From: Bdellovibrionales bacterium
GTDB taxonomy: Bacteria > Bdellovibrionota > UBA1018 > CAIMNF01
Reading direction: 5' to 3'
DNA length: 64,000 nt
Assembly (NCBI GenBank): GCA_040380025.1
Contig: JBEIJY010000005.1
Location: 39,397 to 103,396, forward strand
Shown here piece after piece: positions 2,046 through 62,821 of the stretch; positions within the stretch are counted from its first letter, which is position 1, and every line of letters starts with the position of its first letter. Under the pieces are notes generated by a model. That model was not told where the DNA came from. It made no database searches and worked only from the letters and a program-made list of their open reading frames with translations. The position numbers and the translations under genes are program-made.

Positions 2046-5000
2046 GATTCACCCGGCTCAGGATTGCGGCGTTTTCGTTTTTGCTCCTCACTGCCGCAAC
2101 CCTGGGCGGAGGCCTCGCCTACCTCGAAAGCGGGGCATTCGGAAATCTGATCAAGCGGATCCTCTCGGAGCGATCCCCGAAGAAGCTCGGCATCACGGGC
2201 GAGTTCTCGCATCTGAAGATTTATTTTTTCCCCCCGGGGGTCGGCATCGCCGATCCGAAAATCCGGGTCGCGCGCGAGAATCTCGCGAACATCCCCGTCG
2301 ATGCCGAGATCGAGGCCAAGGAGCTTCGTGCGAGCTTCGCTCCGTTCCAGATGTTCACCGGAACGCTCAGGGTCGACGAGGTCGTGGTCACCGGAGGATC
2401 GGTCCGGGGTACCGTTTCCTCGGCGGTTTTCACCGAGAAACCCAAAAAGAAAAGGGTGGAGCGCTTCGGTTGGGACGATCTCTTCCGTCTGCAGATCAAC
2501 GGTGTCCGGTTGCGGGATACGTTTCTCGATGCGACCTTCGAGCTTCCGGGTGCGAAAAAAGAGATTGTGCGATCCGAGCTGATCGTGAAGGAGCTCGATC
2601 TTCGCAAGGACTCGATCGAGGACCGTGAGGGACTCGTGTCGAGTGCCGTGGTCCGTGCGGTGCGCTTGGAGCCTCCGGCCTCGTGGGGCCCGGTTCCGGT
2701 TCGCGAGGCGAGCGAGCTCCGGTGGGATCTGCAATTCACCGATCAGGGGCTTCGAATCGAGCCGCTCGCAGTCGAACTGCCCGGGCTCCGCCTCACCGCC
2801 CGGGGAAGGATCGACGGAAATCTTCTGGACGAGAAGGAAGACCCGAAGGCCGAGGCCTCGCTCGAGATCGCATCCGATCTGGGCATCCTGCTCAACCGGG
2901 GACCGGTCGCGCAAAAATGGGGGGGCGAGGTCGCGCTGAAGGCAACGGCGGGCGCACGGGTCAGGGACATCGGGAATTCCCTGAAAGCGCGCTATGATGT
3001 CGATGCGAGGAATTTCTTTTATGGCGAAGCGAAGGCGGCGATCGCCCGTTCCGAAGGTGAACTGGATCTCGCCGAAAAAACGATCAAACTGAAATCGCTC
3101 GAAATGCGGGAGTCCTCCGGGGCCGAGGGCGCAGGACGGGTCCGGGTTCTTCCGACGGTGCTTCCGCTCGATCTTGACCGGGCCTTCACTGCCACCCTCG
3201 AACTCGAAAAAGCCGATCTCCACTGGCTGGGCGGGGTGGTCGCGCCCTCTCTCACTCCTCTCGAGGCGAAGATTTCCGGAAAAGTCGGCCTCCGGTTCGC
3301 GCCCGGAGAAAAGAACTGGAAGCTTCAGGCCGAGCCCGATCTGGAGGTTTCGAAGTTCGCCCTGACCAATCAAAAGTGGGGCGTGAAGCGTCCGATGAAG
3401 TTCATCCTGAGGCCGGATCTTCCCATCCGGATCCGGGGAGGCGTCGACGCGGGCCCCGCAGGGTTGGAGTTCCGGAATCTTGGACTCGGAATCCGGAAGA
3501 CGCAGTTTCTGGTGGCCGGAGGCATCCGCAAAGGAAAAGGCTTTGATTTCACCGCGAAGGGCCCCGCCGATCTGAGTGAAATCCGGGAGATTGCAGAGAT
3601 TCCGATCCGGGGCGAAGGCACGATCGAGGCGAGGATCCACGGACCCGCCGATGCGCTTCTTCTGGATTTCGATGCCCGGCTCTCCGGAGCGGAATACATT
3701 GATCTTCATCTCGGAAATCTCGAAGGCCGCGTGACCTACGATGATGGCCAGTCCCGACTTCGACTGACCGACATGACGGGGCGACACGGGGGAACGTTTT
3801 ATTTTCTGAAGGACGGGTTCATCGATCTCGCCGGGAGTGATGACATCCGGCTCCCGATCGAGGTCCGATCCGGAAAAATCGAGGAGCTCTCCGAGGTGCT
3901 CCAGTCGCTCGTCGCAAAGATCAGCTGGTATCCGCGGTCCCTGAAGGGCGAAGTGCACGGATCGGTTCTGGTCGCCGGAAAAATCGACATGCCCCGGCTG
4001 GTCATCGAATCAAGGCTCGAGGGCACCGATTGGTCCTGGGCCGGAGAGCGGGCGCGCAAGGTCAGGATGGCGGTCGGTTACGATCGGGGGCTTTATTACG
4101 CCCGCGAGGTGTCGGTCGTGAAGTCCGTCGGGGAGTTCCGCGGGCAGGTCGAGTTCGACGCCGGCACCGATGCCCTCTCGTGGAATCTTTCGACCTCCTC
4201 GCTCAGTCTGAATGACTTTGATTTTTTCAGCCGTCTTGAGATTCCCGCCCGCTCGAAAATCGAGATCCGGAGCACCGGTTCCGGAACGATGGAGCGTCTC
4301 GAATCCTCCACGCGGATCCGCGGCTACGGGACCGAGGTGAAGGGCGAACAATATCAGGATTCCGAGCTCACGCTGGTTTCGGGCGGGAATCGCGTCGAGG
4401 CGGATGCGAATCTGTTCGGTCGCGAGCTCACCGCCCAGCTCCGCTATTCGCTGATCCCGAAACAACCGTCTTCGTTCCGGATGGACCTCCGGCAATTCGA
4501 TTTTTCTCCCGCGATTCTGATTCTCAATCCGAAACTCGTCGATGATCCGGCTCTTGCGGCGAGGGCATCGGGGCACATCAAGCTCGATTTCCTGAGCACC
4601 CAGTTCGAGCTTGCGAGAGGGGAATTCGAGATCGGGGAGTATCTGGTTTCGAAAACCGGATTCGAGGCCCGTCTGGAAGATCCGATTTCGGTGCCGATCC
4701 AGCTCGGGTTTTTCCGGCTTGAGCCGGTCCGGTTCCGCTTGAACGACTCCGCGCTGATCCTGACCGGAGAAGGGCGCAAGGGGGATGTCGATCTCACGCT
4801 CCAGGGAACGATCGATCTTGCGATGGCCGAGCTTCTGACCTCCTCGATCCGCAAGGCGCAAGGAAAGGCCGCGACGCGGATCACGCTGAAGGGCCCGATG
4901 AAGGATCTGAGCTTGGACGGACAGCTGGAATTCGCAGGAGCGATGGTCCAGCCCGGCTGGCTTCAAACCCCATTCGAGGATGTCGACGGAAAAATCGTGA

Positions 5001-55608: not shown

Positions 55609-55707
55609 AGTTGACGGATTATATCAGAATAGTTGGAAATGGCAAGCGTCTCCGCTCGAGCACAATGAAAGGGTGCAGTTTGGCGGGTTTGATCTATAGT
55701 TTCCTCC

Positions 55708-59241: not shown

Positions 59242-60444
59242 CTATCGAATGGCGACCGTTTCTTCTGAACGGGAAACTTTTGCCGGGTCCGCCGAATGAT
59301 TCGCGGCCCAGAACACCACCCCGGTGACCAGCAAGCTGTACGCAAGCGCAAAGCTCCGGCGGGAGCGCAAAAAGCGCGCTGGAACCTCGCACGAACGGAT
59401 GGCGCCGACCCGCTCCGAAAGTACGGGGTAGAGGTTTCCGTTCAGGATGCGCAAAAATGAGTTCTTTTGCTCGTGGATTCCTTGCACGGTTTTTTCGAGG
59501 GCCGACACGAGTGCGTCACTGCTTGCTCCCATCGCGACGGCCGCAAGATCGGCCTCATGCTCTTGCCTCGAGACCACGCGGCTAAAAAGAAAGGCCTGAA
59601 GAAGCACCGAGACAGGAATCGACAAGAGCACCACCACGGGTTGCGAATGAAACAAATACACCGCCGGCAACACCACCCAGAACGCCGAGAGAACCATGAG
59701 CCCCACGGCCGAAAATATGCGTTTCGAGGTGTGGTTTTGCTTTAAGTGGGCCGCCTCGTGCAAAAGAACCGCCCGAAGCTCGTCATCGTTCAGGGACTCG
59801 ATGAGGGGGAGGGTGATGAAGAGCGTGCGTCCGAAGGCGCCCACGCCGAATCCCGTTCCGGCCAAGAAGGCATTTTTGACGCTCGAGTTCGGGTCATCGA
59901 CAATTAGCACCTGCGAGAGCAGGACGCCCTCATGCCGGAATGAATCGAGAATTGAATTTTTGAGCTCTGATTCGGCCATCGGGCTGCATCGGTGCTGAAG
60001 GCGCAAAAAGAGCGGCATCAAGAACGGAATCGCAAAGGGCACAAAGAAGATGGCGAGGTTCCACTGGGCAAGAATTGCCGTGATGGCGGCTCCCACGGCG
60101 AAACGCCCTGCCGTTTGCCGGAGCGAGGCCTGGTGCGAGACGAGCGAAACGGGGCGCGCCCGGTTCATCGAGAGCTGGTAGCGCCCTGCGATCTGAAACA
60201 GAATCGAAAACGAGATCACCGCCGCAAAGAGGAGTGCTCCGCCCATGCTCGAGGAGGCTTCGCGGAAGGCGAATCCCCCGGTGAAGAGCGCAACAAAGAT
60301 GAGGGTCGAAAGAAGAGATGTCTTTTTTTGAACCTCGTCGGCAAGGACGGGCCTTTTGTGGTCGAGCCAGGTTTTAAAGAAAAACGGTGCTCCGACAATG
60401 ACAGCAAGACAAATCCAGACAGCAAGTTCGTTCGGGTTCAACAT
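59242..60444 (-). CDS. M48-family membrane zinc metallopeptidase
   Basis: NAF, ELRAVLLHEAAH (HExxH), QEHEAD; multiple TMs; GGAGG RBS before ATG 60444. Confidence 0.85.
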   Translation of the reverse strand: MLNPNELAVWICLAVIVGAPFFFKTWLDHKRPVLADEVQKKTSLLSTLIFVALFTGGFAFREASSSMGGALLFAAVISFSILFQIAGRYQLSMNRARPVSLVSHQASLRQTAGRFAVGAAITAILAQWNLAIFFVPFAIPFLMPLFLRLQHRCSPMAESELKNSILDSFRHEGVLLSQVLIVDDPNSSVKNAFLAGTGFGVGAFGRTLFITLPLIESLNDDELRAVLLHEAAHLKQNHTSKRIFSAVGLMVLSAFWVVLPAVYLFHSQPVVVLLSIPVSVLLQAFLFSRVVSRQEHEADLAAVAMGASSDALVSALEKTVQGIHEQKNSFLRILNGNLYPVLSERVGAIRSCEVPARFLRSRRSFALAYSLLVTGVVFWAANHSADPAKVSRSEETVAIR

Positions 60445-60506
60445 CCGTGTCCTCCCGAGAACCTTCTCGGCGGGGAGGGGGATTTGTTGAATGGGCAAAG
60501 ATTGCC

Positions 60507-60706
60507 AACTGCCCCCTTTGATTGCGCTTTTTTGATGGAGGGGGATCGGGAGAGGTTCCTGGAATCATTCCGTTTTTACCCCCATGCCGCGTCCTGCGGC
60601 CTCGCTTGCGCGCGTCACGCGCTCGCGAGAGTCGGGAAAAAAGGAATGATTCCAGAGACCTCCCCCGATCCCCCTCCTTGATCAAGCACAATCAAAGGGG
60701 GCAGTT
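60507..60706. repeat. 200-bp fold-back element A (long stem capped by two hairpins)
   Basis: 60507-24 and 60689-706 form a perfect 18-bp inverted repeat; 60537-50/60664-77 (14 bp) and 60561-71/60643-53 (11 bp) also pair; inner hairpins at 60586-600 and 60601-629. Confidence 0.93.
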
Positions 60707-61615
60707 TGGAAGGAGCACCGTGTTGTGATAGCGCACGTAGATCGCCAGATGGTCCATGAGTCGGTCCTTGAGCTTGGTCGTGCACCAGGTCTTCCGGAAG
60801 AGCCGATTGATGTTCGCCCGAAGCATTGCGCAGGTGTGATTCAGCGAGAAGAGCGGATCAAAGCCGCCCTTCTTGATTTCGCCCTGCCCGGTGTGCGATC
60901 CGCGGAGCCCCGGGTGCTGGATGTGGCTTGCATGAGGTAAATGTTTTTTCACAAACATCGGATAATGCGGATTCTGATCCGACTCGATCACGACTTCAGG
61001 ACTCAGAATCCGTTTCGATTGCTTAAAGAGGCTCTCCCAGCCCTCGCGCCTGAGGTCTTTTCGCTTTCCGTATTTCTTGCGCGCGATCTTTGCCAGGGGC
61101 CCGTTCGCCGGCATCTGCGAGGCCTGAAAGCTTAGAATTTCGCGGGTTTTTTTGTTCACCATCAGGGTGACGCTGATGGGTTTGCAGCGAGTGTGCTCGA
61201 AGGTCTCCAGGTCGTCGAATTGCACTTCGGTGATCGAGTGGGGCTCAATCATTTGAAGCCATCGGTTGTGATCCTCCCTCGCGCGTTTTGAGACGAGCCG
61301 GAACTTCCGCACGACGGTCTTCCGATTCAGCCCTAGATGAATCGCCATTCTTCTTTGGCTCATGCCTGACGAGAACAGCTCCCAGACGAGCGAATTGTAT
61401 TCCCGCTTTTTCTGCCTGTAATCGGGCGAGTGGGTCGCGCTCGAGAAGTGTGTGCCGCAGTTCCGGCACAGATAGCACTGGAGTTTCCTACGGTCCCACA
61501 GTCGATAGAACGTCCCTTTTTTGACGATTGGTCTGAATCCCGGACCCTGGTTTTTTTCGGGATGGATCAGGGACGGGCTTAATTTACAGTTCGGGTTCGG
61601 GCAGCAGCGGTTCAT
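60692..61615 (-). CDS. IS1/IS1595-related transposase-like protein (Zn finger, HTH, RNase H-type catalytic domain), 307 aa
   Basis: CPNPNC...CRNC; MSQRRMAIHLGLNRKTVVRK HTH; VQFDDLETF; IESDQNPHY; LRANINRLFRKTWCTTK...YHN resembles the IS1 InsB C-terminal motif. Confidence 0.8.
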   Translation of the reverse strand: MNRCCPNPNCKLSPSLIHPEKNQGPGFRPIVKKGTFYRLWDRRKLQCYLCRNCGTHFSSATHSPDYRQKKREYNSLVWELFSSGMSQRRMAIHLGLNRKTVVRKFRLVSKRAREDHNRWLQMIEPHSITEVQFDDLETFEHTRCKPISVTLMVNKKTREILSFQASQMPANGPLAKIARKKYGKRKDLRREGWESLFKQSKRILSPEVVIESDQNPHYPMFVKKHLPHASHIQHPGLRGSHTGQGEIKKGGFDPLFSLNHTCAMLRANINRLFRKTWCTTKLKDRLMDHLAIYVRYHNTVLLPNCPL

Positions 61616-61627
61616 GCCAAGGCTAAG

Positions 61628-61643
61628 GCAGGAAAAATGCCAA
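61628..61643 (-). promoter_or_regulatory. Candidate sigma54 (-24/-12) promoter of the transposase
   Basis: TTGGCATTTTTCCTGC has GG-N10-GC spacing; the ATG begins 13 nt after the -12 C. Confidence 0.55.
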
Positions 61644-61651
61644 TCAAATCC

Positions 61652-61848
61652 AAACTGCCCCCGTTCATTGTTCCCGATACCGGATGCGGATGAGCGAAGT
61701 GTCGGAAACAATTTCGGGTTTGCCTCCGAGCTGAACACTCCGGCCTTGCTCTCGCTATTCTGGCTCGCAAGAGTCAGCAAAAGCAAATCGTTTCCAACAC
61801 TTTGCTCATCCGCACTGCCAAGCAAGGAACAATGAAAGGAGGCAGTTT
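61652..61848. repeat. ~197-bp fold-back element B (long stem capped by two hairpins)
   Basis: 61652-74 pairs with 61826-48 (2 mismatches); 61685-714 pairs with 61785-814; inner hairpins at 61714-29 and 61730-78. Confidence 0.92.
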
Positions 61849-61854
61849 TGTTTT

Positions 61855-62184
61855 TCAGAGCCGACGAATCTCCGCGATCATGCGTCCGTGTCTGTGGAGT
61901 CGCACGGGAGTGCCGCTCAGAACCCGCTCCAGGATCTCTCCGGTTTTGTTTTTCAGCTCGGTGGTGGAGTAGCTCGCCGTATTCAGCTCTTGTTGGGCAT
62001 GAATCCACGTTTCCAGATTCAAGAACGATTGCACGGGCAAACCGGATTCGGGCAGGATGCCATCGGTCAGAATGAACTCCATCGCGTGTTTGAACGAGAT
62101 TCCCGGAAAGCTCCCGCGGCGGATCTCTTGTTTCAGGTTCTCGATCAAAACGGAATTCAGACAGCTCGAAAGTTCTTTATTCAT
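61855..62184 (-). CDS. Protein with C-terminal Phd/YefM antitoxin-type DNA-binding domain
   Basis: YSTTELKNKTGEILERVLSGTPVRLHRHGRMIAEI matches the Phd/YefM pattern; GAGG RBS; starts 7 nt after fic. Confidence 0.7.
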   Translation of the reverse strand: MNKELSSCLNSVLIENLKQEIRRGSFPGISFKHAMEFILTDGILPESGLPVQSFLNLETWIHAQQELNTASYSTTELKNKTGEILERVLSGTPVRLHRHGRMIAEIRRL

Positions 62185-62191
62185 AAGGCCC

Positions 62192-62821
62192 TCACTTCAG
62201 TCGGTTTGCAAAAAATCCGGTCAGCGCACTCAGGTCGCCCTGATTTGCTCTTTCCAGCGCCTGTAAGTGCTCCAGTTTGTCGCTAGAGTAAAAAACGAAA
62301 TTCTTTTTCCATTTCCAGTGAAACCAATACGCGATCAAGATCCGGCCGATTCTTCCGTTTCCATCCTCAAACGGGTGAACTCGCTGAAACTCATAGTAGA
62401 GTGCGGCACCCGTCTCGTACGGGGTGGTTTGTTCCTTCTGGTTGAAATGATCGATCCATTTGCGCATGAGGGACGCGACCTTGGCTGGGGATTCATAGTC
62501 AAAGCGACGACCATCGGTCAGATGGGTGAAGTTTCGGGATGACTTCCAGCGGCCATGCTCTCCCGGGAACCCTGAAAAAAGTTTTGCATGAAATGCCAGA
62601 ATCAAGTCCTGCGAGAGAAACGGGGACTTTTCAAACTCCCGGATGATCCACTCGACGGCCATGCGATAGTTCAAGAGTTCTCGGGATTCCGAGACGGGGT
62701 GCCCAAGGATGGTTTTGCCCGCAAGGACGCTCCTTGCCTCGGATTCGGTCAGGGTAGAGCCCTCCACCAAGGTGGAGCCGATGAGTAAGGATTCCTCTAA
62801 GGACTGTAAATTCCACGACAT
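62192..62821 (-). CDS. Fic-family protein (class II, N-terminal inhibitory motif)
   Basis: Canonical HPFEDGNGRIGR; STLVEG matches (S/T)xxxE(G/N). Confidence 0.92.
   Translation of the reverse strand: MSWNLQSLEESLLIGSTLVEGSTLTESEARSVLAGKTILGHPVSESRELLNYRMAVEWIIREFEKSPFLSQDLILAFHAKLFSGFPGEHGRWKSSRNFTHLTDGRRFDYESPAKVASLMRKWIDHFNQKEQTTPYETGAALYYEFQRVHPFEDGNGRIGRILIAYWFHWKWKKNFVFYSSDKLEHLQALERANQGDLSALTGFFANRLK

Follow-up and report, generated by a model that had tools for sequence, protein, structure and literature searches.

Several described repeat systems resemble the locus reported here. Long-stem MITEs such as Nezha, NEMIS/Correia and bcr1 are, in the sections of PMC3184786 cited, about 200 bp long, share their terminal inverted repeats (TIRs) with an insertion sequence (IS), are flanked by duplications, fold stably and can fuse with open reading frames (ORFs). 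For bcr1, compensated changes and two stem-loops are described as well, and in the IMU composite of the same source two whole MITE units bracket cargo that they could move together. In REPIN-RAYT systems (PMC3116915, passages cited) conserved ends enclose a variable, hairpin-forming spacer of fixed length, and units flank the transposase gene. TwoAYGGAY and reverse-complemented Bacillaceae-1 motifs (PMC4333381; bioRxiv 10.64898/2026.09.22.753630; passages cited) carry two hairpins in succession on a basal stem that is long and poorly conserved, with GGAY-type loops and tandem G-A; they occur in many copies per genome and are suspected of mobility. All of these traits have counterparts at the present locus. 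CsrA binding is proposed for TwoAYGGAY and for reverse-complemented Bacillaceae-1 in the cited part of PMC4333381, and the cited part of the preprint calls the link between mobility and regulation in these motifs unresolved.

In the window, the whole stretch of 64,000 nt analysed here from a Bdellovibrionales bacterium, two fold-back elements, A and B, bracket a candidate transposase gene. Both belong to a MITE family in which each copy has its own pair of matching arms and the apex is TwoAYGGAY-like. The features are as follows.

60505..60708, no strand assigned: element A, whole fold-back MITE unit, 204 bp including the end base
60505..60528, plus strand: outer TIR of A; this type of TIR also ends plain IS copies
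60537..60580, no strand assigned: variable inner stem of A, left arm (partner 60634-60677)
60634..60677, no strand assigned: variable inner stem of A, right arm (partner 60537-60580)
60567..60647, minus strand: conserved Y-tip and stem base of A; 76.6 bits with the tip model, of which it is a training sequence
60685..60708, minus strand: inner TIR of A; encodes the last transposase codons (PNCPL) and the TGA stop, the native right end being replaced
60692..61615, minus strand: candidate DDE/RNase H-fold transposase of 307 aa with zinc finger and HTH, from profile and predicted fold
61628..61643, minus strand: sigma54-type -24/-12 box, 12 nt before the transposase ATG
61651..61849, no strand assigned: element B, whole fold-back MITE unit, oriented as A, 199 bp including the end base
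61651..61674, plus strand: inner TIR of B; adjoins the transposase leader, the native left end being replaced
61685..61714 and 61785..61814, no strand assigned: inner stem arms of B, enclosing a degenerate tip
61711..61789, minus strand: degenerate tip of B, both GGA absent; 61 bits with the tip model, of which it too is a training sequence
61826..61849, minus strand: outer TIR of B
55656..55683, minus strand: solo TIR of the same family, between a radical SAM gene and a Nif3-like gene

Neither a partner TIR nor a tip was found in the window for the solo TIR. A Fic-domain gene and then a Phd-like gene lie directly beyond B (window 61855-62821).

Folding and family of the two elements

Both elements are strong fold-backs on each strand. 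The folding energy of A is -147 kcal/mol on the plus and -155 kcal/mol on the minus strand (z about -13), that of B is -96.5 and -110.6 kcal/mol (z about -8), and none of 200 shuffles folded as stably as A or B. Positions 60502-60529 of A pair with 60684-60711 in the terminal stem, and its inner stem joins 60537-60580 to 60634-60677. The terminal arms of B are 61646-61674 and 61826-61854, and its inner arms are 61685-61714 and 61785-61814. The first-pass annotation had given A and B one architecture, and the terminal stem, internal loop and inner stem are common to both; the Y junction of A is absent from the minimum-energy fold of B. Its hand count of mismatches is correct, with three A/C and one G/T in the stems of each element, and B has one further A/C at the tip base. 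The interiors, which it described as unrelated in sequence, are so only in part. A and B align within one family, have the 24-bp TIR and a tip of about 55 nt in common, and differ only in the inner stems of about 35 nt.

The genome (2.35 Mb in 53 contigs, G000 in the locus names) contains 128 matches to the TIR, and one shuffled genome gave none at that score. Thirty-nine TIR pairs lie no more than 400 bp apart, with paired lengths peaking at 197-204 bp. Sixty copies, A and B among them, were used to build a covariance model of the tip, which has 84 matches. Direct repeats of 9 bp surround paired units exactly in 3 of 39 cases and with at most one mismatch in 5 of 39; they are seen at one offset only, with the end placed one base outside the motif. 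Target bias is symmetric across all 128 TIR ends, with a purine at -8 in 98 and a pyrimidine at -2 in 98. The MITE units have their TIR in common with the ends of plain IS copies, and perfect 9-bp duplications (9/9) flank the plain copies in L035 and L111. No 9-bp duplication is present at A, at B or around the composite that they form with the transposase gene.

The units are short, dispersed in many copies and bounded by a TIR common to an autonomous IS, encode no transposase of their own and in some cases have 9-bp target-site duplications. As MITEs they are an ordinary kind of element. The first-pass annotation had named a known MITE or REP family explaining both A and B as the outcome that would undo its proposal of a new structure, and in kind this is what was found: both are MITEs of the adjacent IS, although the family itself is uncatalogued. 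No paper on it was found in a literature search that excluded subscription journals and preprint supplements. The family differs from Nezha, NEMIS/Correia and bcr1 in that the two arms of a copy complement each other over about 70 bp although their sequence is specific to that copy, its conserved part is the apex, most copies are without duplications, and the tip is also found without this TIR.

A and B are probably MITEs of about 200 bp moved by the transposase they bracket, with arms re-matched by DNA copying and a conserved two-hairpin tip predicted to fold on the minus strand. The transposase would cut at the TIRs and insert units with a 9-bp duplication, and later one-ended events such as adjacent deletions would remove most duplications. 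Twice in this genome, whole units would have replaced the native ends of a transposase gene while sparing its promoter and frame. Neither an empty site nor a circle junction was found among the contigs of a second assembly and in 40 relatives, none of them conspecific. Duplications split between different elements gave no exact cross-matches; cross-matches with one mismatch number 8, against about 2 by chance, a figure that carries no correction for composition.

Deleted, chimeric and head-to-head units are also present (G000:C7:7720-7793, C9:89231-89327, C13:35202-35285, C18:24700-24831 and C6:23794-24201, the last with a 4-bp spacer). Tipless 155-bp MITEs with the TIR of the local IS occur in another Bdellovibrionaceae genome (L006:211-370 and 3013-3168).

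The transposase gene and its ends

The 307-aa product matched no Pfam family. Its match to NCBIfam NF033558 (IS1) reaches 37.5 bits over residues 42-166, short of the cut-off of 100. The predicted model (pLDDT 78) finds its best fold match in the IS256-family ISCth4, and retroviral integrases match as well; a sequence search of solved structures gave chance-level matches only. Homologues form at least 4030 clusters, of which the named ones are mostly from Bdellovibrionota, and no viral loci matched the transposase or the tip pattern. In an alignment of 18 homologues D134 and D213 never vary, nor do E246, N259 and H260. The predicted RNase H fold makes the protein a candidate DDE transposase. 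It shares with IS1 and IS256 transposases a zinc finger, an HTH, an RNase H core and a 9-bp duplication, and differs from them in scoring far under the family cut-off, in a TIR that begins CAAACTG, and in belonging to an unannotated, Bdellovibrionota-centred group.

In relatives the gene normally forms a plain IS, with one TIR of this type about 88 bp ahead of the start and the other 10-80 bp past the stop. Partial plain IS ends are present in this genome too (C40, C46, C38 and C20). Of 54 loci with a 5' end, 22 have a box of the type that we take to be the sigma54 consensus 10-15 nt ahead of the ATG, compared with 0.26% of random ATGs; a strict form of the pattern is present in 5 of 30 further loci, and the loci in both counts are non-independent. 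The genome encodes RpoN. From the position of the box, the transposase transcript is predicted to be leaderless, RpoN-dependent and free of element B. In the window and in L001-L158 the conserved box stands 12-13 nt ahead of the ATG, and many near-matches to it end in GA or GT rather than GC.

An outward TIR covers the stop codon only in the two full transposase genes of this genome (C5 and C12) among 114 transposase-bearing loci, many of which are partial and some redundant. The two genes are 63% identical, have the same junction codon at the 3' end, and in each a whole unit immediately precedes the promoter. The C5 gene has 85% DNA identity to plain IS copies, so the two captures look independent or converted. 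The C12 units are without a tip, and in L128 (G011) only the left end has a unit, likewise tipless. No duplication was found around the C12 composite, as none was around that of A and B. One-ended events, including adjacent deletions, are a behaviour of IS1, and the captured layout may similarly be the product of an adjacent deletion that started at a unit close by, with only those outcomes kept in which promoter and frame were intact. The same 3' breakpoint in two different genes, with native ends swapped for units, may mark an early domestication. Compared with the IMU composite (PMC3184786, sections cited), the cargo here is the transposase itself, its stop codon comes from a unit, and the composite has no duplication.

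The two-hairpin tip

On the minus strand the tip consists of a basal stem followed by tandem G-A and two hairpins, both with an NNGAY loop and the first also with a GA/GAAA internal loop. In A these are represented by tandem G-A, a GTGAC-loop hairpin and an AGGAC-loop hairpin, and the second tandem GA reads GG. Counts for the four GA dinucleotides are 60/60 copies with 59/60, and 59/60 with 45/60; their plus-strand equivalents would be pyrimidine mismatches. GGA is found in the two tip loops of 52/60 and 48/60 copies, and the loops are mostly AGGAY. About a third of the loops in this genome are without GGA, and most of these retain GAY. Covariation within the tip exceeds all 500 shuffles and the slid controls, a lenient comparison because the structure was derived from the same sequences. 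These features support the conservation of what is probably a single-stranded structure on the minus strand at the tip.

Rfam scans of A, B and the loci of six relatives gave nothing at cut-off. The cut-off of TwoAYGGAY (RF01731), 43 bits, was not reached, the sole match in the genome having 30.1 bits and lying on a different fold-back on C26; for Bacillaceae-1 (RF01690) the best match was 16.8 bits against a cut-off of 35 bits. The tip has the two hairpins on a common basal stem and the tandem G-A of RF01731, and NNGAY loops in place of AYGGAY. With scores below the cut-offs, its relation to TwoAYGGAY is a likeness and not membership. It is set apart from TwoAYGGAY and Bacillaceae-1 by loops of 5-6 nt and sub-cut-off scores, and by its place in a unit that has TIRs at its ends and a candidate transposase, an arrangement not reported for TwoAYGGAY in the passages cited from PMC4333381 and from the preprint. 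Here a motif of this kind goes together with a candidate transposase, 9-bp duplications and terminal repeats, which makes both mobility and CsrA binding directly testable. The C26 fold-back (G000:C26:3486-3611) is long and carries two ATGGAT-loop hairpins.

The tip would be a protein-binding motif of the TwoAYGGAY type. Genes for CsrA and for FliW, its protein antagonist, are both encoded. A CsrA-binding RNA is the leading single guess for its function, though a tentative one; the loops without GGA weaken a reading as a pure CsrA sponge. A single-stranded-DNA signal for copying comes next and is somewhat more doubtful.

The tip is conserved across families. Its model has matches in 15 of 127 genomes of the class, with 36 candidates scored per genome. 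Tips with TIR shells are found in G000, G002, G010 and G013. In G065 the tip caps palindromes of 220-340 bp that are without this TIR and whose long arms have differing outer ends, and in three genomes (L044, L200 and L201) the tip hairpin stands beside tRNA-Ser(TGA), with outer arms made of the tRNA 3' end and its inverted copy. This transposase therefore cannot explain the whole tip family. The G065 loci L206-L220 comprise at least 28 tip-capped palindromes with a shared internal-loop motif and variable outer ends.

The range of arms, together with 22 tips of family f4 whose arms are 89% paired and divergent in sequence, would suit a tip that is itself the active unit. Such a tip would make inverted copies of adjacent DNA, be it an IS end, a tRNA 3' end or other sequence, and the MITE shell would be one product, later amplified by the transposase. 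The better-matched arms of units without duplications, described below, point the same way. Other observations make this account unlikely. No dedicated enzyme was found, and the nine tested genomes with many or strong tip matches all encode this transposase, except G003. The inner stems match neither local nor other genomic DNA, and the other C12 units and those of G011 are TIR shells without a tip. Were it nevertheless true, and we consider the chance small, the Y-tip would be the core of an undescribed Bdellovibrionota palindrome-building module that gains IS, tRNA or other arms, has captured a DDE transposase and spreads CsrA-binding hairpins. It would parallel REPIN-RAYT with a DDE enzyme and explain how TwoAYGGAY-type motifs move, for which a mechanism is missing.

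Pairing of the inner arms

Among 60 unique copies, inner-arm pairing is 0.85 within a copy and 0.58 across copies. Comparison of nearest copies, made over 46 edges at a distance of at most 0.3 between neighbours that are phylogenetically non-independent, gave 113 compensated and 154 single changes, where about 31 doubles are expected if the changes were independent. Transversions account for 62 of the 113 compensated changes (51 are transitions) and for 68 of the 154 single ones. Transversions have no G-U intermediate, so the compensated changes do not favour a route through G-U. Compensated doubles are clustered (16 adjacent against 10.2, p=0.034), a mirrored 1-nt indel is visible in the family alignment, and more than half of the unique arm mismatches are non-wobble. 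One copy, C42:4407, matches C39:16139 at 0.97 and 0.91 when its arms are swapped and its tip orientation is kept; its arms are swapped relative to C7:20908 as well. The tip of C42:4407 is thus inverted relative to its arms, and the swap is a direct trace of arm-to-arm DNA exchange.

The stem covariation is likely the result of arm-to-arm DNA copying rather than of RNA-type selection. The unit, single-stranded during replication or copy-out, would fold into a rod, and template switching or repair would copy one arm on the other, leaving arms that drift between copies yet remain paired. Template switching is described in the cited part of 10.1101/2021.04.15.439925 as restoring stem pairing in one event, with multi-base compensated changes; the hairpins maintained there belong to RNA genes, and here to a mobile repeat. 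A natural case of strong stem covariation that likely stems from DNA copying calls for caution in covariation-based RNA discovery.

At six orthologous site pairs, 28 changes are single-sided and 3 compensated, which argues that arm copying is not continuous in place. These six remain from ten pairs after removal of L068/L074 and L053/L075 (mispaired) and of L057/L078 and L050/L071 (weak flanks); L051/L074 was retained despite one weak flank. At the orthologous sites the arms and tip are conserved as much as the flanks or more. Arm perfection is 0.82 in the 6 duplication-bearing units and 0.87 in the 19 without a duplication (p=0.037), a poor fit to copying at ordinary transposition. Re-matching of the arms is thus episodic and may accompany the one-ended events that erase duplications.

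A guide or spacer role for the variable stems, raised in the first-pass annotation, was examined against the host genome, phages and plasmids, and no such role was found. Searched against the masked genome, 68 unique stems scored near shuffles; the best matches were 14 nt for A and 13 nt for B, and two matches scored higher than the rest. No phage match was found for the stems of A or B, and the stem of A has one weak 34-nt plasmid match.

The first-pass annotation also saw a strand bias in the mismatches, which would become G-U pairs on the minus strand. This is present in A and B and is weaker in the family as a whole. When unique isolated mismatches are de-duplicated, the A.C:G.T ratio is 43:30 (p=0.16) for this genome and 26:25 for relatives, and in the terminal stem it is 21:16. 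The bias is clearer near the tip, where the 14 tip-proximal pairs give 39:13 from non-independent cells, in the single changes that separate neighbouring copies, which run 55:31 toward minus-strand G-U, and in the 22 tips of family f4, with 29:15. Its direction is consistent and its size modest, near the tip about 1.5-3:1. It may have its source in strand-biased mutation or repair. The conserved features of the tip are the stronger sign of a strand. Energies are lower on the minus strand in 24 of 27 units under RNA parameters and in 23 of 27 under DNA parameters, and so do not tell the two nucleic acids apart.

A structured RNA under selection along the entire unit, for instance a dispersed CsrA sponge or a transcript stabiliser, with stem covariation due to compensatory selection, is quite improbable. 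The G-U bias toward the AGGAY strand near the tip would agree with such an RNA, as would the conservation at orthologous sites and the two AGGAY loops, present in 32 of the 78 tips of this genome and in 20 of 44 from relatives, with one case on the plus strand; CsrA is encoded in this genome. By crude gene calls, convergent genes flank 19 of 46 intergenic units against a background of 91 of 549, which again fits; 29 of 78 tips, at contig ends or without flanks, fall outside this count, and the gene model missed the transposase, so the context labels of A and B are mistaken. Against an RNA role throughout the unit, the doubles are transversion-rich and clustered, the tip is flipped in one copy, and in tandem gene contexts, by the same crude calls, the AGGAY strand shows no preferred orientation (11 sense, 10 antisense). 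B has neither GGA and is likely upstream of the transcript start, and Rfam scores are sub-cut-off. Selection on a single-stranded structure, as first proposed, accordingly keeps its support for the minus-strand tip, with its tandem G-A, GGA loops and compensated pairs, and loses it for the stems, where transversions outnumber transitions, most mismatches are non-wobble and one tip is inverted. The same gene calls place 3 units in frame inside genes; the three lie within long ORFs, with the AGGAY strand antisense in all (G000:C12:40661-42994 and C9:62736-65072).

That the units are REPINs moved as ssDNA by the Y1/RAYT-like protein of the genome is very improbable. One Y1-like gene does stand beside a short TIR derivative (C13), and compensated spacers and units flanking a transposase are known from REPINs (PMC3116915, passages cited). 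The present transposase is DDE and not HUH, the units have 9-bp duplications and the TIR of a DDE IS, and plain IS copies persist; neither a cognate HUH transposase nor an absence of target duplication, both expected of REPINs, was found. Y1 matches occur in 25 of 41 relatives, many of them without the element, and their co-distribution is uninformative. Read by eye against what we take to be the HUH motif, the Y1 frame appears to be without one HUH histidine and the catalytic tyrosine. In L159 a Y1/RAYT-like ORF (1085-1686), apparently without catalytic residues, is followed by a short TIR hairpin.

Many contigs end inside these elements, but an assembly artefact behind the palindromes or the bracketed layout is barely credible, since a second assembly, from the likely source run and so from reads that are not independent, holds 59300-62800 in one contig (32.7x, 6 differences), the arms carry mismatches, and orthologous copies occur in other species.
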